IMG/VR virus record: IMGVR_UViG_3300007169_000025
Location: 32,001-96,000 of that record
DNA: 64,000 nucleotides
Direction: 5' to 3' (one strand)
Source: a virus
Part shown: piece after piece, positions 21,606 to 30,669 of the stretch
Layout: the number at the start of each line of letters is the position of its first letter
How positions within the stretch are numbered: position 1 is the first letter of the stretch
Notes under the pieces: model-generated
The model's input: the letters and a program-made list of their open reading frames with translations, nothing else
Databases searched by the model: none
Told to the model about the DNA's origin: nothing
Made by a program: the position numbers and the translations under genes

Positions 21606-22682
21606 TTAGTTATCTGTCTTTGGTTTAATGACTTTACTGAGATTAGTTTTTTCAGGCTCACTTAAACCGTTTGAATCAATTCTATAATTGTCGTTGTTAA
21701 TGAATGTGCTGAGCACACGATTAGCCGCAGCCCACTCTCTACGATTATCGTCACCGACGCGAATCCATCTATTTCCCGATTTCTGGAATAGTCTATTTGG
21801 ACTAAAATCTGTACGCAGGAAATAATCGCCATCGCTAATACCAATTATTGGGAAACTTTCACCGCTACCAGCAATAGGTACTCCGTTTACAGGAACGCCA
21901 GTGTCACCCGCAAAGTCAAAGCCTATAGTTGGCTTATCTGGTACTTCGGGGTCAAAATATAAATGTCCAGTTCTTCTCCATTGTGGGTCATATGGAACAT
22001 CTCGTTCAGCTTGTGCAAGTATAGCGTCGTTGATAGCAATTTCGCTTTCGTATTTGCTAACAAGATTACGCAAGTCCTCTTCGTTTTCACCAGTACCAAG
22101 TATATCTCTGTATTCTTGGCTGTCGCTGATTGGACCGCACTTGACACGCCATAAATGTGGCCACCAGCGCGGATCAAAGCCTTCGCTGGGTCTAGCACCA
22201 TCTTGAACTACATAAAATCTATTAATAGCACCTTCTGCACCTAATAGAAGATCATCTCGCAAGTGAGGTAATTCAATAACATCACCGGGCATCAGTTTAC
22301 GACCCAATGACTCTACCATACTTTCAATATGGAACGTTAGAAAAACAGTATCGTTGGCTAAAAATAAGCCAAACTGTGTTAAATCATAACTATCGTTATC
22401 TTGTATATTGTATTGCCCGCGCAGCTCGTAAATGTTTGTATCATATTTGCGATCTCTGTTTTCTAAGAACAGCAAATCTTGAATGAAAACCTGATCATTA
22501 ACGGTGTTGCCCGCAGGTGGTCTAGTAGGATCAGCGGAATTAGCATTTACAGTATCATGTATACCTAAATATTTGTGAACATGTACACCTGTACCACCAG
22601 CATATAGGTGTTCACCTACAATTCTGTCGATGAATTTGTAGTCGTTGGTCTTAATAGGATTCCACAGGCTTATTTTGGGCAT
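21606..22682 (-). CDS. Neck/head-closure protein (gp14-like)
   Basis: DLLFLENRDRKYD, LTQFGLFL.NDT and LMPGDVIELP motifs; late promoter upstream. Confidence 0.65.
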   Translation of the reverse strand: MPKISLWNPIKTNDYKFIDRIVGEHLYAGGTGVHVHKYLGIHDTVNANSADPTRPPAGNTVNDQVFIQDLLFLENRDRKYDTNIYELRGQYNIQDNDSYDLTQFGLFLANDTVFLTFHIESMVESLGRKLMPGDVIELPHLRDDLLLGAEGAINRFYVVQDGARPSEGFDPRWWPHLWRVKCGPISDSQEYRDILGTGENEEDLRNLVSKYESEIAINDAILAQAERDVPYDPQWRRTGHLYFDPEVPDKPTIGFDFAGDTGVPVNGVPIAGSGESFPIIGISDGDYFLRTDFSPNRLFQKSGNRWIRVGDDNRREWAAANRVLSTFINNDNYRIDSNGLSEPEKTNLSKVIKPKTDN

Positions 22683-22687
22683 AATAC

Positions 22688-22732
22688 TATTTATCAGAAC
22701 TTCTAGAACATCATTCTACCAAACGATAAGTA
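22688..22732. promoter_or_regulatory. Divergent late promoters (GATAAATA minus strand 22688-22695; variant GATAAGTA plus strand 22725-22732)
   Basis: Both motifs lie in the 75-nt gap between the neck gene and the enzyme cluster. Confidence 0.55.
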
Positions 22733-22757: not shown

Positions 22758-23630
22758 ATGCATAGTTTAATTAAGGGCGCCCGCCCTATAAAAAGCAGCC
22801 AAATAAGAGATCACTATAATCGCTTTGAGTATAGTGATGTGTCCCTTGCTGACTATACCGAGATATGGCGAGAATGGCTAACTTACACTGATTTAAAAAC
22901 CTTAGATGGTTTAGAGCATTTTAAATACGCAGATTATACGCAAGGCACTAGTCAAACGTTTGACAATTTTGTACTAAAACACGGAAAAGAAAAAACAATT
23001 TTTGCCATGCGTGGCGACTTTCAGTATCACGCATGTATATCTAAGTTTTCTGATTTTGACTATATTGATGGCGACTTTAAAACATCTAAGTTTTTTGGCT
23101 TAGGTTTAGCGGCTGTTATAGTTAGCGCACCGTTCAGCGATTATGGTTGTATGCATCCAGAATTTGAAAAACTTATGGAAATGTGCGATTTTTATAAAGC
23201 GCCAGTTTGCTTAGATCTAGCGTATTGGGGCATATCAAAAAACATTCATATTGACTTAAACAAATATCCTATGATAACAGAAGTTACATGTAGTTTAAGC
23301 AAGCCATTTTATTCATTAGAAAATCACCGTGTGGGTGTTAGATTTACTCGAGAATATACTGATGATGGTATTAGTATGATCAATGAAGTAAACATGCAAA
23401 ACAACTACAGTATGAGTTTAGGTGCGTATTTTATGAAAAATTTTAGTCCAGATTGGAACTGGGATACATTCGGACAACAGTATGAAGATGTATGTAATGA
23501 TCAAGGATTAGTTTATACTGATACAGTAATTTTTGGTCTAGGTGACGAAGCACGTCATAAAAGTTTTAATCGAGGCGTTTTTAATAATTATCGGGTCTGT
23601 GTCAGCGAATTTTTAGGAGATATAAATTGA
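22758..23630 (+). CDS. PLP-dependent aminotransferase-like enzyme (fold type I)
   Basis: GTSQ, DLAY (D-x-A-Y) and SLSK..R.G (SLSKPFYSLENHRVG) match the class I/II PLP-lysine region. Confidence 0.65.
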   Translation: MHSLIKGARPIKSSQIRDHYNRFEYSDVSLADYTEIWREWLTYTDLKTLDGLEHFKYADYTQGTSQTFDNFVLKHGKEKTIFAMRGDFQYHACISKFSDFDYIDGDFKTSKFFGLGLAAVIVSAPFSDYGCMHPEFEKLMEMCDFYKAPVCLDLAYWGISKNIHIDLNKYPMITEVTCSLSKPFYSLENHRVGVRFTREYTDDGISMINEVNMQNNYSMSLGAYFMKNFSPDWNWDTFGQQYEDVCNDQGLVYTDTVIFGLGDEARHKSFNRGVFNNYRVCVSEFLGDIN

Positions 23631-24685
23631 TTGTAAATTCACATAATGATTGGGATCCACTTGAGGAAATTATTGTTGGTCATGCACACCATAGTCGTAT
23701 CGCAACAGATATAAGTGCCCGAAGTTTTAGCTATGCTAATCATCCTGCAGAAAAAGTTATTCCGTTAGAAGGAACATATCCACAATGGGTAATTGATGAA
23801 GCAAACGAAGATGCAGATGGTTTAGCTGACACACTTACTAAGATGGGCGTAAAAGTTCATCGTCCTAAGATTATTGATTGGGATAATATTAATTACGACA
23901 TTGGGCAAGGATGGAATACCAAAGGTTGGTATAGCTGGTGTCCTCGCGACTTAATTCTTCCATTAGGCGATATGCTTATTGAAACACCCACACCAGTTCG
24001 CGCAAGATATTTTGAAACAAGATTATACGAAGACATTCTCTATCAAGCCTTTGAAGATGGTGCGTTATGGGTACAAGTACCAAAACCAAAACTACATGAT
24101 AATATGTATCAGTTTGAAGATCTGAGTAAAGCTACGTTGATGGATCACGAGATCTGCTTCGATGCTCCTAATATTGTTCGTGTAGGCCGCGACTTACTGT
24201 ATCAGGTCAGTAACAGCGGCAACATGAAGGGATTTAAGTGGCTCAAGCGTTTCTTAGAACCATTGGGTTATAGATTACATTACAGTGAGCTTTACAGCTT
24301 TGCACACTTTGACAGTACTATTGTACCATTGCGTCCTGGTTTAGTGTTGTTGAACAGTACACGAGTTACACCAGACAACTGTCCAGAGATCTTTAAGAAG
24401 TGGGATAAAATTTGGTTTGATGATTGTGTTGTGCAGGGAAGCAAACTAGCTGAGCAGGGTTACATTGCTCCTTGCAGTCCATACATTGGTATGAATATTC
24501 TCAGCGTTAACGAGAACACAATTATCTGCGATAGCGCACAAGAACCTCTTATGCGTGAACTAGACAAGCACGGCATTGATAGTGTGCCAGTTCGTTTCCG
24601 TCATAGTATGACACTAAGCGGCGGCATCCACTGTGCCACACTTGACCTACGCCGTAAGGGTACATTAGAGGATTATTGCAACTAA
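23627..24685 (+). CDS. Amidinotransferase (glycine/inosamine-phosphate amidinotransferase family)
   Basis: NSHNDWDPLEEIIVG, CPRD, FDAPN, HFDST and catalytic GGIHCATLDLRR motifs. Confidence 0.92.
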   Translation: MIVNSHNDWDPLEEIIVGHAHHSRIATDISARSFSYANHPAEKVIPLEGTYPQWVIDEANEDADGLADTLTKMGVKVHRPKIIDWDNINYDIGQGWNTKGWYSWCPRDLILPLGDMLIETPTPVRARYFETRLYEDILYQAFEDGALWVQVPKPKLHDNMYQFEDLSKATLMDHEICFDAPNIVRVGRDLLYQVSNSGNMKGFKWLKRFLEPLGYRLHYSELYSFAHFDSTIVPLRPGLVLLNSTRVTPDNCPEIFKKWDKIWFDDCVVQGSKLAEQGYIAPCSPYIGMNILSVNENTIICDSAQEPLMRELDKHGIDSVPVRFRHSMTLSGGIHCATLDLRRKGTLEDYCN

Positions 24686-25230
24686 TGAATAACTTAGGTT
24701 TTATAAACATAGATTTCGTTACGAATGAGATGCTTTATACCTTGAAGTTTACTGAGCATAATCATGTAAATTATTCAGGCGGATACTGGGACGAAATAGG
24801 CACTCCAGTGCCGGATTATCCATTTGATGGCCCATGGGTTTATCAGATGTTTAATAATGATTGTCCAAACTGGGCGCACGATATTAAAAATATGTTTAGT
24901 GATAAACTTATATACTCGATGGTTGCAATTAACTTGTTAAAGCCCGGTCGATTCATTCCTCCGCACCGAGACAAGTTTGTTAGATTATTAGCAGATGCAA
25001 AAAAGAATGATTTGAATACAGAGAACCTTGTTCCAGTAAGAATAAATATTTTTTTACAGAATCACATACCGGGACACTTTTTTGAAATGAATAATTCTGT
25101 TTTTACAAATTATCAAAAAGGAAACTATAGTATCATACATAAAAATGTAATTCATTCTGTTGCTAACATAAGTCAATATAATAGATATACAATGCAAATA
25201 ACAGGCTTTGCGAGGGAAGATTTAATATGA
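24676..25230 (+). CDS. 2OG-Fe(II) dioxygenase / cupin-fold hydroxylase
   Basis: PG..IPPHRD (HxD) ... HSVAN ... RYTMQITG facial-triad pattern. Confidence 0.7.
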   Translation: MQLMNNLGFINIDFVTNEMLYTLKFTEHNHVNYSGGYWDEIGTPVPDYPFDGPWVYQMFNNDCPNWAHDIKNMFSDKLIYSMVAINLLKPGRFIPPHRDKFVRLLADAKKNDLNTENLVPVRINIFLQNHIPGHFFEMNNSVFTNYQKGNYSIIHKNVIHSVANISQYNRYTMQITGFAREDLI

Positions 25231-26147
25231 AAATTTTTATGACAGGCAGTTCAGGATTTATAGGTCAGCACCTTTCTGAAAGATTATCAGGACACGAATT
25301 ACACTTTTTAGCTTGCGACCTTCGAGACCATCTTTCGGTTGTGTCTCAGGTTAAGTCAGTACAACCTGATATTATTATCCATCTTGCTGCCCGTACAGAA
25401 GTAGAGCAGAGTTTTTACGAGCAGAATGTATTCAGCGATGTTAACTATGTTGGTACTGTTAATTTAATTGAAGCAGCAAAGCATGTACCTAATTTAAAAA
25501 ACTTTATTTTTGCTAGCACCATGGAAGTATATGGATGGCAACCAATCAGTGATTTAATTCGCGACGGCAAGGAAGATCCAAGCAACATACCTGCATTTGA
25601 TGAAACTACATTACCAAACCCGAATGCACCATATGCAGTAGCAAAGTATGCCTGTGAAAAGTATCTAGAGTATGCACATCGCAGTTATGGTTTACCGTTT
25701 ACTGCTATTCGTCAAACAAACAGTTACGGTCGCAAAGACAACAATTTCTTTGTAACAGAACAAATCATTTATCAAATGTTAACTAATTCACATGAGGTAA
25801 ATTTAGGTTATGCAGAACCTTACAGAAATTTTATTTTCATCGATGATTTATTAGATGCTTGGGTAGCAATAGTTGAAAATCCTGAAAAGTGTAATAACAG
25901 TATTTTTTGTTTAGGCCCAAATGCACCTATTAAGATTAGACACTTTGCTGAAAAGATTGCAGATAAGCTCAATTGGTCCGGTCGTATTAACTGGGACACA
26001 AAACCAAAACGACCTGGGGAAATTTATCTGTTAAATAGTACTAACAAAAAAATTACTAACGCACTAGGTTGGGAACCAAAAATAGATTTAGATACTGGGT
26101 TGGATTTGACAATCGACATTTGGAAGAAAAATTTAGGGAGAAAATAA
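25227..26147 (+). CDS. NAD-dependent NDP-sugar epimerase/dehydratase (extended SDR)
   Basis: TGSSGFIG, IHLAA, STMEVYG, YAVAK (YxxxK), RNFIFIDD and LGWEPK motifs. Confidence 0.92.
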   Translation: MKIFMTGSSGFIGQHLSERLSGHELHFLACDLRDHLSVVSQVKSVQPDIIIHLAARTEVEQSFYEQNVFSDVNYVGTVNLIEAAKHVPNLKNFIFASTMEVYGWQPISDLIRDGKEDPSNIPAFDETTLPNPNAPYAVAKYACEKYLEYAHRSYGLPFTAIRQTNSYGRKDNNFFVTEQIIYQMLTNSHEVNLGYAEPYRNFIFIDDLLDAWVAIVENPEKCNNSIFCLGPNAPIKIRHFAEKIADKLNWSGRINWDTKPKRPGEIYLLNSTNKKITNALGWEPKIDLDTGLDLTIDIWKKNLGRK

Positions 26148-26148
26148 G

Positions 26149-28035
26149 ATGAATGTTGCATTTGTGCAACCAAACTTCCAAACTGGCCCACGGCATCTAA
26201 ATGCATTTTATTTGCCCTACACCGTGGGTATCCTTTGGTCATATGCTAGTCAGTATTCTCACATTAGCGAAAACTTTTCTGTAAAACATTGGATATTTAG
26301 AAGAGATCCAGTTGATCAGGTTGTTGCTCAATTATCAGAGTGCGAGATTGTATTTTTTAGTCTGTATGTTTGGAACAGAGAATATTGTTTCAAAATAGCT
26401 AAAAAACTAAAAGAACTAAATCCTAAAGTTTATACTGTATTTGGCGGCCCTGATTTGCCTCATCGTAATAAGAATCTCTTTGACGAATTTCCTTTTATTG
26501 ACGTTGCTGTTATTGGCGAAGGCGAACACATGGTCTATGAAATATTAGATCAATATTTGCAAGGTAAAAAGCCTGTTAGACACAGAGCCCATGCACCAAG
26601 AATTCGTGACCTAGAAATACCAAGCCCATACTTGACTGGTATATTTGATGAACTAATCGCTGCTCATCCAGACATCGAGTGGATGCCTACACTAGAGACT
26701 GACCGCGGTTGCCCGTATAAGTGTACGTTCTGCGATTGGGGCAGTCTAACATCTAGTAAAGTAGTTAAATTTGGATTAGAACGTGTATTTGCTGAATTGG
26801 AGTGGTTTAGCAAAATGAAAATGCCATTTCTTACAATGACTAATGCTAACTTTGGTATTTTTAAAGAGCGCGATATTCTAATAACTGATAAGATAGTTGA
26901 ACTTTCTAGAGAAACAGGATACCCTAGCGGTCTCGGCGTAAGCTATGCTAAGAACAGTAATAAAGATGTCTTTGACATCGTTAGAAAGTTTCAAGAAGTT
27001 AACATACAAACTGGATTTATTTTAAGTCTACAAACTACTACTGATGAAGTCCTAGAAAATGTTAAGCGTACTAACATGAATATCAATGATGTTTCGGAAA
27101 TAGCAAATTATGGCAGATCTTTGCAATTGCCAATCTTTACTGAAATCATTATGGGACTACCTGGCGAAACTTTAGAAAGCTGGAAACAGAATATTGAAAA
27201 TATATTAGATGCTGGACTGCACAACGGCATTGATGCGTTTCTACTAAACATGATAGAAAACGCACCTATGGTAGATGATATTGAAAAGTATGATTTAAAA
27301 ACGTTTGCTGCATACGATATGTTTTACGAAACATCAGATAGTTTAGAAGAATCTGATAGAGTTAATGAAACGATACAAGTTATCAAAAGTACTAGTACAT
27401 TAACTGTAGAGGATTTGCTGGAAACAATCATCTACACATGGTTCGTTATTGGTTTTCATATACATGGTATATCTGATATTATTGCAATCTATTTAAGACG
27501 AGCAAAAAATGTATCCTATAAAGAATTTTATGATAAGTTAATTGATCAAGTACGAAAAGATCAAAACATAATTGAATGGGAAAATAAAATTCGGCATGCA
27601 TATTTAGATTGGCATAATACTGGTATCTTTAAGTTAGACTTAATTGGTTTAAAGTTATCTAGTTGGCAAGTACCAAATTCTATGAGTTTAATCATGCATC
27701 AAACTGATACAGTTGATCACTATATTGATACAGTGAAAGAATTTGTAATCGAGAATTATGATATTGACCCGGACATTATTAGCGATTATGAGGTATTATC
27801 AAAAAACAGAATTAAGCAGTGGGGTCGTTATAATATAACACCTAAGCAGATTTGTACAAAAACAACACTATTTGACTACACTCAAAACCTGTGTTATAAT
27901 GTTACAAATGAACAACAACAGTATTTGATTGCAGATAGGTATAACCAATTCCCTACAGAGCTGTCGCAACATATTGATTATGTTATATACGGCCGCCGAA
28001 AAATGTGGGTTTTAAATGTGGTTGACAAACTCTAA
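26149..28035 (+). CDS. Cobalamin-binding radical SAM enzyme
   Basis: B12-binding region (VFGGP, IGEGE), PSPY, RGCPYKCTFCDW (CxxxCxxC) and IMGLPGET. Confidence 0.9.
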   Translation: MNVAFVQPNFQTGPRHLNAFYLPYTVGILWSYASQYSHISENFSVKHWIFRRDPVDQVVAQLSECEIVFFSLYVWNREYCFKIAKKLKELNPKVYTVFGGPDLPHRNKNLFDEFPFIDVAVIGEGEHMVYEILDQYLQGKKPVRHRAHAPRIRDLEIPSPYLTGIFDELIAAHPDIEWMPTLETDRGCPYKCTFCDWGSLTSSKVVKFGLERVFAELEWFSKMKMPFLTMTNANFGIFKERDILITDKIVELSRETGYPSGLGVSYAKNSNKDVFDIVRKFQEVNIQTGFILSLQTTTDEVLENVKRTNMNINDVSEIANYGRSLQLPIFTEIIMGLPGETLESWKQNIENILDAGLHNGIDAFLLNMIENAPMVDDIEKYDLKTFAAYDMFYETSDSLEESDRVNETIQVIKSTSTLTVEDLLETIIYTWFVIGFHIHGISDIIAIYLRRAKNVSYKEFYDKLIDQVRKDQNIIEWENKIRHAYLDWHNTGIFKLDLIGLKLSSWQVPNSMSLIMHQTDTVDHYIDTVKEFVIENYDIDPDIISDYEVLSKNRIKQWGRYNITPKQICTKTTLFDYTQNLCYNVTNEQQQYLIADRYNQFPTELSQHIDYVIYGRRKMWVLNVVDKL

Positions 28036-28049
28036 ATTCCTGCTATACT
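28022..28049 (+). promoter_or_regulatory. Sigma70-type (early/middle) promoter
   Basis: TTGACA-16 nt-TATACT with a TG extension, starting in the end of the radical SAM gene. Confidence 0.75.
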
Positions 28050-28079: not shown

Positions 28080-29240
28080 GTGGCTAGAGCTAAAGCACCT
28101 AGAAAGTTATCTGTTAACGGGTTTTCGGAACCCGAATGGCGTTTGGTCCAGCTGGACATGAAGCCCATTAGGATTAACGGAATCGAAAAAGATTATAATC
28201 GTTTGCTGTGGGAGGCTGACTCCTATGTGCATTCAGAGGTAGATGATAAAAAGAAGGCAGCATCTTTTATCAAATATTGTGAAAAGAATTTTGATAAAAA
28301 AAGTGCAGCCGCACTGAAGCGCCTACCTGAGTATAACTTTATTACAGTTGGTAAGATGGCTTACTTGCTGGAAAAAGGTGTAGCACTACCTGAACAGCGT
28401 ATTGCTAAACTTAAAGAGTGCTATGAAGGCTTTCTAGTACAGGCTGCTAATTTAGAAAAGAAGAAAGCAGATGTTGAGGCTGTTAAGCCCAAGGCAGTTA
28501 TTACTGTTAGTATTCAGCAGCGTATGAGGGAACAGGTTAGCGATCTATGCGCTCACTGGGATTATTTGTTAGACGAACTTTGTCGTAAGCGTCTCGATAT
28601 TTCTACATTTGATCCTTATAGCCAGATGCAAAGTTATAAGGATAATATGATTAAGGCAGCACATGCTAAGATCATTAAGGAAATGTACGAAGCACAACAT
28701 TCTGAGGCAAGAGAAGTTGTAGCATGGAAAGACGAGCAGATCAAGGAAGGCTATGCCTATATGACTCCTAAGATGCGTAAGGAGTTCCTTGAATTTTACG
28801 AAAAGATTGCTATTGCCTGCGACACCTTTATCAATACAGGTAAGGCTGTACGCAAGACTAGAAAGAAAAAGCCTGTTAGCAAGGAAAAGGCAATTGGCAA
28901 GCTCAAATATAAGCAGAGTGAGCCAAGTTTGGGATTAGCTAGTATCAATCCAATGAACATTCTAGATGCTCAGGTACTTTGGGTATATAACACAAAGAAC
29001 CGTAAATTGGGTGTATATGTTGCTGAAGAACATCATAACCTTCAAGTTAAGGGTACAACAATCTTAGGCTTTAACGCAAAGCAGAGTGTACAAAAAACGC
29101 TACGCAAACCCGAATTGCTTAAGGGCGCCGATAAGCTGGCTCGAACTAAGTTTCAAAAGCTCTTTGAGGGGCTGAATGCGGTTGAAACCGAGATGAATGG
29201 GCGAATTAACGAGCATACCCTGCTAATTAAGGTGTTCTAA
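28080..29240 (+). CDS. Conserved basic hypothetical phage protein
   Basis: 386-aa ORF, GTG start with AGGAG Shine-Dalgarno, Lys-rich; function not recognised. Confidence 0.7.
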   Translation: MARAKAPRKLSVNGFSEPEWRLVQLDMKPIRINGIEKDYNRLLWEADSYVHSEVDDKKKAASFIKYCEKNFDKKSAAALKRLPEYNFITVGKMAYLLEKGVALPEQRIAKLKECYEGFLVQAANLEKKKADVEAVKPKAVITVSIQQRMREQVSDLCAHWDYLLDELCRKRLDISTFDPYSQMQSYKDNMIKAAHAKIIKEMYEAQHSEAREVVAWKDEQIKEGYAYMTPKMRKEFLEFYEKIAIACDTFINTGKAVRKTRKKKPVSKEKAIGKLKYKQSEPSLGLASINPMNILDAQVLWVYNTKNRKLGVYVAEEHHNLQVKGTTILGFNAKQSVQKTLRKPELLKGADKLARTKFQKLFEGLNAVETEMNGRINEHTLLIKVF

Positions 29241-29254
29241 AGATAAATAGTAGT

Positions 29255-30013
29255 ATGGCAAATACTATCGGATACAGTAGCAGGGAAGACCTAATTAAGA
29301 GCTTGAAAAATCGCTTAGGCGATGGTATGGTTGATGTTGAGCTTGATCGCGAACATTACGATACTGCTATCGATATAGCTCTAGGCAAGTATAGACAACT
29401 AAGCAGCGGCTCAGTTGAAGAAAGCGTTATCTTTATTCAAACTCAGGGCGGCATAACAGAATATACTCTTCCCGATGAAGTTATTGAAGTGCGTCGACTG
29501 TATCGTAGAGGTATCGGTACAAACAGTGGCGGCGGCACAAACTTTGATCCTTTTGACGTAGCATTTAACAACATGTATATGCTACAAGCAGGTCAGATTG
29601 GTGGACTTGCTGTGTTTGATGCGTTTGCTCAGTACAAAGAAACAATTGGTCGTGTGTTTGGTAGCGAGTATAACTTCCTTTGGAATCGTAACACAAAGGT
29701 TCTAAAAATTCTTCGTAATGTTAATCACGAAGAAGAAGTTGCAATCGGTGTTTATAACTTTATTCCTGAAACTATTTTGCTCGGCGACATTTATGCTAGC
29801 CAGTGGTTAGCATCTTACTCTCTAGCACATTGTAAATTAATGTTAGGCGAGGCTCGCAGCAAGTATGCTAGCGGCTTACCGGGCGCCGGCGGTGCTATTC
29901 AGCTCAACGGTGCTGACCTCAAAGCAGAAGGCAAAGCAGAAATTGATGAGTTGTTGGTAGCTCTTCATAATATGGAAGAAGGTAATAGTCCTTTGGGCTT
30001 TATTATAGGTTAA
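29255..30013 (+). CDS. Neck protein (gp13-like)
   Basis: RLG..MVDVEL, LGEARSKY..LPG.GG..QLNG..LK.E and terminal PLGFIIG; GATAAATA 5 nt upstream. Confidence 0.85.
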   Translation: MANTIGYSSREDLIKSLKNRLGDGMVDVELDREHYDTAIDIALGKYRQLSSGSVEESVIFIQTQGGITEYTLPDEVIEVRRLYRRGIGTNSGGGTNFDPFDVAFNNMYMLQAGQIGGLAVFDAFAQYKETIGRVFGSEYNFLWNRNTKVLKILRNVNHEEEVAIGVYNFIPETILLGDIYASQWLASYSLAHCKLMLGEARSKYASGLPGAGGAIQLNGADLKAEGKAEIDELLVALHNMEEGNSPLGFIIG

Positions 30014-30015
30014 TA

Positions 30016-30669
30016 ATGATTATTGGATTAGTTGGTTTCATTGGCAGTGGTAAGGATACTGTTGCTAGTAGGTTTATTTCGTACGGCTGTGTTAAAGATA
30101 GTTTTGCAGCACCACTTAAAGATGCGTGTGCAGCTATTTTTGGCTGGCGCCGCGAGCTACTTGAAGGCGATACAGTAGAAAGCAGAGAGTTTCGGGAAAC
30201 ACCAGATATGTTCTGGGCTCGCAAACTAGGTATTGATAATTTTACTCCACGTCTTGCACTTCAACTAGTTGGCACAGACGTTCTTCGTAATCACTTTCAT
30301 CAAGACATTTGGCTATCAAGTTTAGAGTATAGATTTAGGATCAAAAATAACGACCAAAATGTTGTTATCAGCGATGCTAGATTTAGAAATGAACTTGAGC
30401 TTATTAAGAGCTTAAACGGAATCATCGTTTGGGTTCAACGCGGTGAATTGCCACAATGGTTTGATGACGCTGTTAAGGCTAACGAAGGCAATGCTATTGC
30501 TCGCAAAATAATGCAAACTCGTTGGCGCGATGTTCACGAAAGTGAATGGAATTGGGCAGGCTTTCCGGTTGATTATGTAATTAATAATAACGGTAGCATG
30601 GAAGATCTAGACAAACTTGTAAATGATCTTCAACGTAATTTGTTTAAGACTCACCTTAGCGTGATCTGA
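30016..30669 (+). CDS. Deoxynucleoside monophosphate kinase (T4 gp1-like)
   Basis: GFIGSGKDT P-loop, SFAAPLK, PRLALQ..GTD, ISDARFRNE and HESE. Confidence 0.9.
   Translation: MIIGLVGFIGSGKDTVASRFISYGCVKDSFAAPLKDACAAIFGWRRELLEGDTVESREFRETPDMFWARKLGIDNFTPRLALQLVGTDVLRNHFHQDIWLSSLEYRFRIKNNDQNVVISDARFRNELELIKSLNGIIVWVQRGELPQWFDDAVKANEGNAIARKIMQTRWRDVHESEWNWAGFPVDYVINNNGSMEDLDKLVNDLQRNLFKTHLSVI

Follow-up and report, generated by a model that had tools for sequence, protein, structure and literature searches.

The locus described here is a group of five adjacent genes in a 64,000-nucleotide stretch of viral DNA (referred to as the window), which corresponds to bases 32001-96000 of the 104-kb IMG/VR virus record IMGVR_UViG_3300007169_000025. 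The five open reading frames (ORFs), designated A to E, are located on the plus strand at positions 22758-28035 of the window, between neck genes. The CheckV completeness of the record is 28%, which implies a jumbo phage, and the gp15-like protein of the window has 37-39% identity to jumbo phages PA5oct and Atu_ph07. The source is a fragment of an uncultured freshwater jumbo phage with a T4-type core, and its stretch is present in DNA runs from at least eight studies of fresh and estuarine water. A blastn search with the operon against 50,697 phage records gave no match.

Gene A (22758-23630) encodes a 290-residue protein with the fold seen in pyridoxal phosphate (PLP)-dependent aminotransferases, gene B (23627-24685) a 352-residue StrB1-like amidinotransferase of the L-arginine type, and gene D (25227-26147) a 306-residue extended short-chain dehydrogenase/reductase (SDR) of the nucleoside diphosphate (NDP)-sugar epimerase/dehydratase type. 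The accessory genes are C (24685-25230), coding for an AspH-like cupin of approximately 181 residues that resembles the Fe(II)/2-oxoglutarate (2OG) oxygenases, and E (26149-28035), coding for a 628-residue class B radical S-adenosylmethionine (SAM) enzyme similar to TokK, CysS and KedN5. The start codon of B is TTG, within a TTGA overlap with the stop codon of A. The ORF of C opens at 24676; its likely start is the ATG at 24685, in a TAATG overlap with the stop codon of B, a position at which the relatives begin as well. D starts in an ATGA overlap with C, and E begins 1 nt after D. In view of these overlaps and the single 1-nt gap, the five genes are tightly coupled. An earlier note on this DNA, made from the letters themselves, had described five coupled ORFs on one strand between the gp14-like and gp13-like genes, and this description was borne out. 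The five enzyme classes assigned there are confirmed by profile, PDB and Foldseek comparisons, and every motif named there is present, with most of them invariant among the relatives.

Predicted activities of the five proteins

Protein B matches the structure of StrB1 (PDB code 1bwd) with an E-value of 2.9e-83, end to end (residues 2-350) and with small gaps only. The other solved structures matched are SxtG (5.6e-54), HsvA (2e-51) and AGAT (approximately 1e-50). The motifs CPRD, HFD and GGIHC are found in the chain, and the residues D108, H227, D229 and C336, the last of them in GGIHC, are invariant across the phage lineages, including phages S-SCSM2R and CP220. From its sequence, B is unambiguously predicted to be an amidinotransferase of the StrB1/AGAT type with the pentein fold, in which the catalytic Cys, His and Asp are kept. 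The amidino donor would be arginine.

Protein A gave no hit in Pfam, NCBIfam or PHROGs. It does not reach the threshold of Pfam family Aminotran_1_2, for which a fused relative scores 17.6 bits against a cut-off of 19.7, and its PDB profile match to 7n79 is weak (E 0.076). The AlphaFold2 model of A (predicted local distance difference test score, pLDDT, 85.5) is matched by Foldseek to HisC, AAT, C-S lyases and CobD, with E-values of approximately 1e-10 and template modelling (TM) scores of 0.55-0.70. The lysine of the SLSK motif, K182, is invariant across the whole family, D153 of the upstream D153-x-A-Y fragment is nearly so, and a C-terminal Arg is invariant family-wide. The protein is modelled as a fold-type I PLP aminotransferase of class I/II, the fold, the Schiff-base lysine and the aspartate of the pyridine nitrogen all being matched. 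An assignment of A to the sugar-type (DegT) aminotransferases is not supported. As a candidate DegT/DnrJ/EryC1/StrS sugar aminotransferase, A was rejected, since it has no PF01041 hit and its structural neighbours are HisC and AAT.

The family of A is new, without a Pfam model and mostly viral. It comprises 547 clusters at 50% identity, all from metagenomes, and a broad alignment of the family contained no stretch conserved enough for a viral scan. Some members are fused to SPASM-type radical SAM domains. These fusions echo the pairing of an oxidase with an aminotransferase and were counted in favor of the pathway proposed below. As a separate observation, at least six radical SAM genes form a run in a marine viral contig (L088:2364-17462), with one of them fused to a PLP domain of the A family. 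An AspH-like cupin belongs to the same run, whose last member is a QueC-like PP-loop protein; no amidinotransferase was found within 8 kb.

Protein D matches the Pfam families GDP_Man_Dehyd (PF16363; 1.7e-42, 146 bits) and Epimerase (PF01370; 1.6e-40, 139 bits) and is assigned to PHROG 540, nucleotide-sugar epimerase. Its NCBIfam matches are far under the cut-offs, with 121 vs 475 bits for LegB and 108 vs 365 bits for RmlB. The fragments GSSGFIG, S97-T-M-E100 and Y136xxxK140 are invariant, and the best PDB match is 4zrm, deposited as an epimerase. These motifs and profiles clearly indicate an extended SDR of the NDP-sugar epimerase/dehydratase type.

Protein E carries the cluster motif C188xxxC192xxC195 and matches the B12-binding domain PF02310 (32.3 bits vs a cut-off of 32.1) and the Radical_SAM domain PF04055 (41.7 bits). 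Among solved structures it matches TokK (PDB code 7kdx; 9.4e-72, residues 21-468) and CysS (2.9e-42). The motif, the B12 domain and the homology predict a class B (cobalamin-dependent) radical SAM methyltransferase. The C-methyltransferases TokK, ThnK, CysS and KedN5 have the CxxxCxxC motif and the B12-binding domain in common with E. However, the match of E to the NCBIfam KedN5 family (9.7e-70, 235 bits) is far under the 700-bit cut-off, and more than half of the related phages do without E. Elsewhere on the same record, outside the window (G000:C1:100534-100845), there is a second radical SAM gene with an open frame of 303 residues.

In protein C, the residues H97-x-D99...H160 are invariant among the relatives, while the score against the Pfam family Asp_Arg_Hydrox is 20.1 bits, under the cut-off of 22.6. 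The AlphaFold2 model (pLDDT 93.6) is matched by Foldseek to AsqJ, AspH and the P3H/proline hydroxylases, with E-values of approximately 1e-5 and TM scores of approximately 0.5; small non-2OG cupins are among the structural matches as well. R122 and Q174 are invariant, and no Arg or Lys after the distal His is invariant in both paralogue clades of this protein. C is modelled as a double-stranded β-helix protein with an HxD...H triad, similar to the Fe(II)/2OG oxygenases. It is homologous to ORF308 of S-SCSM2R (hhalign 98%), which adjoins the amidinotransferase gene of that phage.

Distribution of the operon and its relatives

The scan of viral contigs with B gave 122 relatives, and 80 of these loci, designated lineage 1, were kept. 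Genes A, B and D are present in all 80, in the same order and in the same neck slot, wherever the DNA is present. Gene C occurs in 0-3 copies belonging to the two paralogue clades, with zero copies in the closest relatives L018 and L019, and E is found in 24 of the 58 loci with a complete D-to-F interval. The set A-B-D is the core of the operon, and C and E are accessory. The co-conservation that the earlier note had asked for is seen for A, B and D, but C and E come and go. Some loci have additional ORFs, either between A and B or between C and D, for which Pfam gave nothing except one weak zinc-finger hit. The median identity to the window is highest for B (87%), the best conserved gene of the locus; the neck proteins reach 70-78%, D 71%, A 59%, E 46% and C 39%. 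Since B peptides served to find these loci, the comparison is a biased one.

Two more lineages were found by a family-wide search with A. Lineage 2 has the order C-A-B, with identities of 35% for A, 55% for B and 31-36% for C, and is without D or E. Its three genes are neighbored by two methyltransferase genes (one of a GXM-like sugar O-methyltransferase, one of the FkbM type), by the genes of an NDP-sugar transferase and a P4H-like oxygenase, and by two radical SAM genes. Lineage 3 has the order C-A-x-x-B. In one of its loci (L153:5803-9980), C and A come after GTP cyclohydrolase I and are themselves followed by an ORF, a phosphoribosyltransferase and a divergent B (33%), an order that raises a possible nucleotide link in this lineage. 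In total, at least 130 viral contigs in the three lineages carry such amidinotransferase operons.

The phage-like contig L090, binned into a metagenome-assembled genome (MAG) of SAR116 (Ca. Puniceispirillum), has relatives of B (58%), E (31%) and C together with TauD and radical SAM genes, and neither A nor D. An Mtd-type tail-fibre gene adjoins these relatives, and the contig is probably phage DNA binned into the SAR116 genome. Another short contig (L089; NZ_PXVC01000123.1, 3736 bp) belongs to the assembly of Synechococcus lacustris str. Tous and contains the tip of the gp14-like gene, A, B (94%), two copies of C, and D. Its presence there could point to the host or result from contamination of the culture.

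Relatives of B were also found among sugar and glycan genes, both in other phages and in bacteria. In cyanophage S-SCSM2R, the relative of B (36%) directly follows the homologue of C, and the two are located among five glycosyltransferases, a DegT-type aminotransferase and a radical SAM gene. In Campylobacter phage CP220, an amidinotransferase is accompanied by several radical SAM genes and two GT-A-like genes. The amidinotransferases of S-SCSM2R and CP220/CPt10 have 36% and 24-29% identity to B, respectively. These phages differ from lineage 1 in having no A-family gene and no TokK-like methylase and in the genomic position of the genes. The CP220 neighbors gp082 and gp085 were compared with A and C and are not homologous to them. 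The genes of S-SCSM2R (PMC12801897) and CP220/CPt10 (PMC2853527) are annotated only, as "antibiotic synthesis genes" and "possible glycine amidinotransferase". No characterized phage amidinotransferase pathway was found in the literature searched, in which such genes are only annotated, in agreement with the statement of the earlier note. The "creatine AMG" (auxiliary metabolic gene) of an ocean survey (PMC11360552) concerns the methyltransferase GAMT and not this operon.

In the betaproteobacterial MAG L094, a relative of B (43%) shares a cluster with Wzz, Wzy, GT2 and NodZ-like genes. In the acidobacterial MAG L098, another (41%) lies within approximately 8 kb of a GT2 gene, a DegT aminotransferase and an NDP-sugar SDR. 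The bacterial clusters and the phage operon share the set of SDR, aminotransferase and amidinotransferase. However, the bacterial clusters, themselves uncharacterized, have a canonical DegT aminotransferase and glycosyltransferases, and no relative of C or E. In the maximum-likelihood tree of the B proteins, the sequences of S-SCSM2R and lineage 3 fall together with the enzymes of the bacterial glycan clusters (support 95/92), while lineages 1, 2 and L090 form separate well-supported viral clades; this support does not extend to their deeper placement. The polysaccharide clusters hint that guanidino-modified surface glycans may be formed in bacteria as well.

Flanking genes and putative late promoters

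The operon is flanked on one side by the gp15-like and gp14-like genes on the minus strand. The latter (21606-22682; PHROG 11591, 3.6e-91) codes for a neck or virion structural protein and is divergent to A. On the other side, on the plus strand, are the gene of a very basic, conserved protein of 386 residues (28080-29240; PHROG 11903) and the gene of a gp13-like head-tail adaptor (29255-30013; PHROG 211, 2.8e-28), with a deoxynucleoside monophosphate (dNMP) kinase gene (30016-30669) just downstream. The 386-residue protein is not recognisably an enzyme; the PDB profile search gave no meaningful match for it, and Atlas gave no usable hit.

In the relatives, the slot between the neck genes is also occupied by SPASM radical SAM genes and by the genes of an isocitrate lyase, a DUF6071 protein and an enzyme-like protein of 455 residues. 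Such extra cargo between the gp14-like gene and A is found, for example, at L039:4551-9101 and L024:6386-9063, and includes the isocitrate lyase (PF00463, 1e-93) as well as the SPASM genes, the latter on the minus strand. This makes the slot a hot spot of accessory genes, so the location among neck genes says little about the target of the product and is no argument for decoration of the virion.

The enzyme-like protein of approximately 455 residues, denoted U, has many invariant polar residues and is encoded directly upstream of A in approximately 35 of the 80 relatives (for example, L024:7609-9063). Its C-terminal domain recurs in ORFs of approximately 367 residues between A and B, and a distant relative is found near the start of the window, at about 597-860. 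U has no Pfam match and no meaningful match in the PDB profile search.

The plus-strand box GATAAGTA (22725-22732) is located 25 nt upstream of A and is a one-mismatch variant of GATAAATA. L018, L019 and L062, the three closest relatives, have the same variant. In the window it occurs 2 times, with 2.9 expected by chance, and the proposal that this box is a late promoter on its own is not supported by these counts. The motif GATAAATA is enriched, with 13 sites vs 4.2 expected, a number reached in 0 of 100 shuffles. The 13 sites span positions 927-63776, and two of them are 5 nt before the ATG of the gp14-like gene (22688-22695) and of the gp13-like gene (29242-29249). In many more distant relatives, a [G/C/T]ATAAATA box is found 5 nt before the ATG of A; in others, A follows an upstream gene instead of an xATAAATA box. 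Because of the enriched motif at the neck-gene ATGs and the boxes before A in the relatives, the operon is likely to be transcribed late. Thus, the late timing proposed by the earlier note is plausible, but through GATAAATA and the boxes of the relatives and not through the window's own GATAAGTA.

With 5 nt between GATAAATA and the ATGs, the late genes may have no leader or almost none, and the box would be a G-first variant of the late box of T4. The late box of T4 itself, TATAAATA, was rejected as the late box of this phage, since it is under-represented in the window (1 vs 7.7 expected). A scan of the operon for terminators and sigma-70 promoters was no better than in shuffles. An 11/12 match to TTGACA-16-TATACT is found at 28022-28049, just before the gene of the 386-residue basic protein; the promoter-like sites of the region are no commoner than in shuffles.

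Proposed pathway and comparison with streptidine synthesis

The predicted activities allow us to propose the following scheme, in which the order of the steps is inferred. The NAD-type extended SDR D would oxidize a hydroxyl of a sugar to a ketone, with or without 4,6-dehydration. The PLP aminotransferase A would convert the ketone to an amine, and B would move the amidino group of L-arginine onto this amine to give a guanidine and ornithine. Optional tailoring could be carried out by C as an Fe/2OG-type oxygenase and by E as a B12 radical SAM C-methylase. On balance, the evidence leans toward a late pathway in which a hydroxylated substrate of the sugar type, probably linked to a nucleotide or phosphate, receives a guanidino group, with hydroxylation and C-methylation as optional additions. 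The most likely product would be a positively charged guanidino sugar-like compound. In favor of this scheme are the enzyme classes with their invariant catalytic residues, the coupling and co-conservation of the genes, the NDP-sugar type of D itself, and the sugar or glycan genes near B in lineage 2 and near its relatives in S-SCSM2R, CP220 and the two bacterial MAGs. The logic of the earlier note, read here as oxidation, transamination and amidination, is backed by the acidobacterial locus L098, but D is not proven to be a dehydratase and A is not of the DegT family.

Several points weigh against this proposal. In 4,6-dehydratases of the RmlB/GMD type, an acid/base pair adjoins the catalytic Thr (T-D-E or T-S-E). 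In D, the invariant T98-M99-E100 keeps the Glu without the Asp or Ser of the dehydratases, and no equivalog cut-off is reached. Therefore the name "dehydratase", used for D in the earlier note, is not established, and the best solved match of the protein is deposited as an epimerase. Extended SDRs also use substrates other than sugars, for example in L-threonine dehydrogenase. Protein A resembles the aminotransferases of amino acids and phospho-amines (HisC, AAT, CobD) and stands outside the DegT family, whose members act on NDP-keto-sugars. In lineages 2 and 3 and in L090, B and C occur without D, so that the link to sugars is indirect there. The window's own box upstream of A deviates from the enriched motif and is itself not enriched. 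We know of no guanidino NDP-sugar. Finally, no GT2, GT1, GT8, GT2_4, Nucleotid_trans or NTP_transferase gene was found in the 104-kb record, an absence that carries little weight because the record represents only approximately 28% of the genome.

The same enzymes could serve an amino-acid or polyamine route, which we consider rather unlikely. Here B would amidinate lysine, an ornithine-type amino acid or a polyamine, and A, C and E would tailor an arginine-like compound. This would resemble the pairs of 2OG hydroxylase and PLP enzyme known for capreomycidine, enduracididine and streptolidine, or the HsvA-type amidination of polyamines. A free cationic metabolite would result, such as a counter-ion of the packaged DNA or a modified amino acid. 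The HisC/AAT-like character of A, with the C-terminal Arg invariant as in amino-acid aminotransferases, is consistent with such a route, as are the matches of B to HsvA and AGAT at approximately 1e-50. The lack of D in lineages 2 and 3 points in the same direction, as does L090, in which a TauD-family oxygenase accompanies the relatives of B, C and E while A and D are both absent, and a late box would suit a need at the time of packaging. However, B is far closer to StrB1 (3e-83) than to AGAT or HsvA, D of the NDP-sugar type is present in 80 of the 80 lineage-1 loci, and sugar and glycan genes recurrently adjoin the relatives of B. It is improbable that the operon serves hypermodification of DNA or nucleotides, in which a guanidino-bearing group, with or without a sugar, would evade host restriction. 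The dNMP kinase gene at 30016-30669, the GTP cyclohydrolase I and phosphoribosyltransferase flanking the lineage 3 triad, and the QueC-like PP-loop protein at the end of the radical SAM-rich cluster with an A domain speak for this possibility. The 2018 work of Lee et al. is said to place PLP and radical SAM enzymes in thymidine hypermodification pathways, which was counted on the same side. However, neither a hydroxymethylase of the thymidylate-synthase type nor a DNA transferase or glycosyltransferase was found in the 104-kb record. In addition, the operon is located behind late-type boxes among structural genes, outside any replication module, and the adjacency of nucleotide genes may be incidental in dense phage genomes.

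Conversion of side chains of a virion or host protein appears very improbable. In this case C would hydroxylate, D (or radical SAM enzymes in the other lineages) would oxidize, A would transaminate and B would amidinate, to give an arginine-like residue. The best matches of C do include the protein hydroxylases AspH and prolyl hydroxylases, SPASM radical SAM genes neighbor or are fused to A-family genes, and the operon lies among structural genes behind late-type boxes. However, there is no precedent for such a conversion, the characterized relatives of A, B and E all act on small molecules, D is of the NDP-sugar type, and the neck slot is open to accessory genes in general. Equally hard to accept is the view that the five genes have nothing to do with each other, being accessory genes that occupy the same insertion hot spot and form no single pathway. 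The cargo of the slot does differ among the relatives (isocitrate lyase, SPASM radical SAM, other ORFs), and C and E are gained or lost. However, A-B-D is invariant in the 80 loci and keeps its order, the stop and start codons overlap, C-A-B is found again in two other lineages with a different order, B and C recur together in S-SCSM2R, and B, E and C in L090. These co-occurrence data largely refute the reading as unrelated neighbors.

A broader proposal extends the guanidino sugar pathway to all of these viruses. The aquatic jumbo phages and at least two other lineages would make a late cationic guanidino sugar that is attached to virions, DNA or the host envelope. This extension is tentative and should be regarded as doubtful. 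If correct, phages would possess a hitherto undescribed class of modification, a guanidino-glycan made by the virus, and its formation would involve PLP aminotransferases of a new family together with a virus-specific oxygenase. Such amidinotransferase operons are widespread in uncultured aquatic phages, and a late-made guanidino sugar or metabolite would represent a new kind of phage chemistry. Its possible roles include decoration of the virion or DNA, remodelling of the surface, and action as a bioactive aminoglycoside-like compound. The family of A, so far without a Pfam model, and the small viral cupin family of C would thereby gain a function.

It is important to compare the operon with the functionally characterized system of streptidine synthesis. 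StrB1, the L-arginine:inosamine-phosphate amidinotransferase of Streptomyces griseus, has 348 residues, while B has 352, and its Cys, His and Asp are kept in B. The streptidine branch proceeds by oxidation, transamination and amidination, the same logic as proposed here for the phage. However, the phage operon lacks the GFO-type inositol dehydrogenase, the DegT/StsC-type aminotransferase and the kinase of streptidine synthesis, and has instead an SDR of the NDP-sugar type and the new HisC-like PLP family. The context is also different: StrB1 belongs to an actinomycete antibiotic cluster, while B is found in a lytic jumbo phage. The operon would work like the streptidine pathway and is not a member of it, the StrB1-like enzyme being the only one that the two share.

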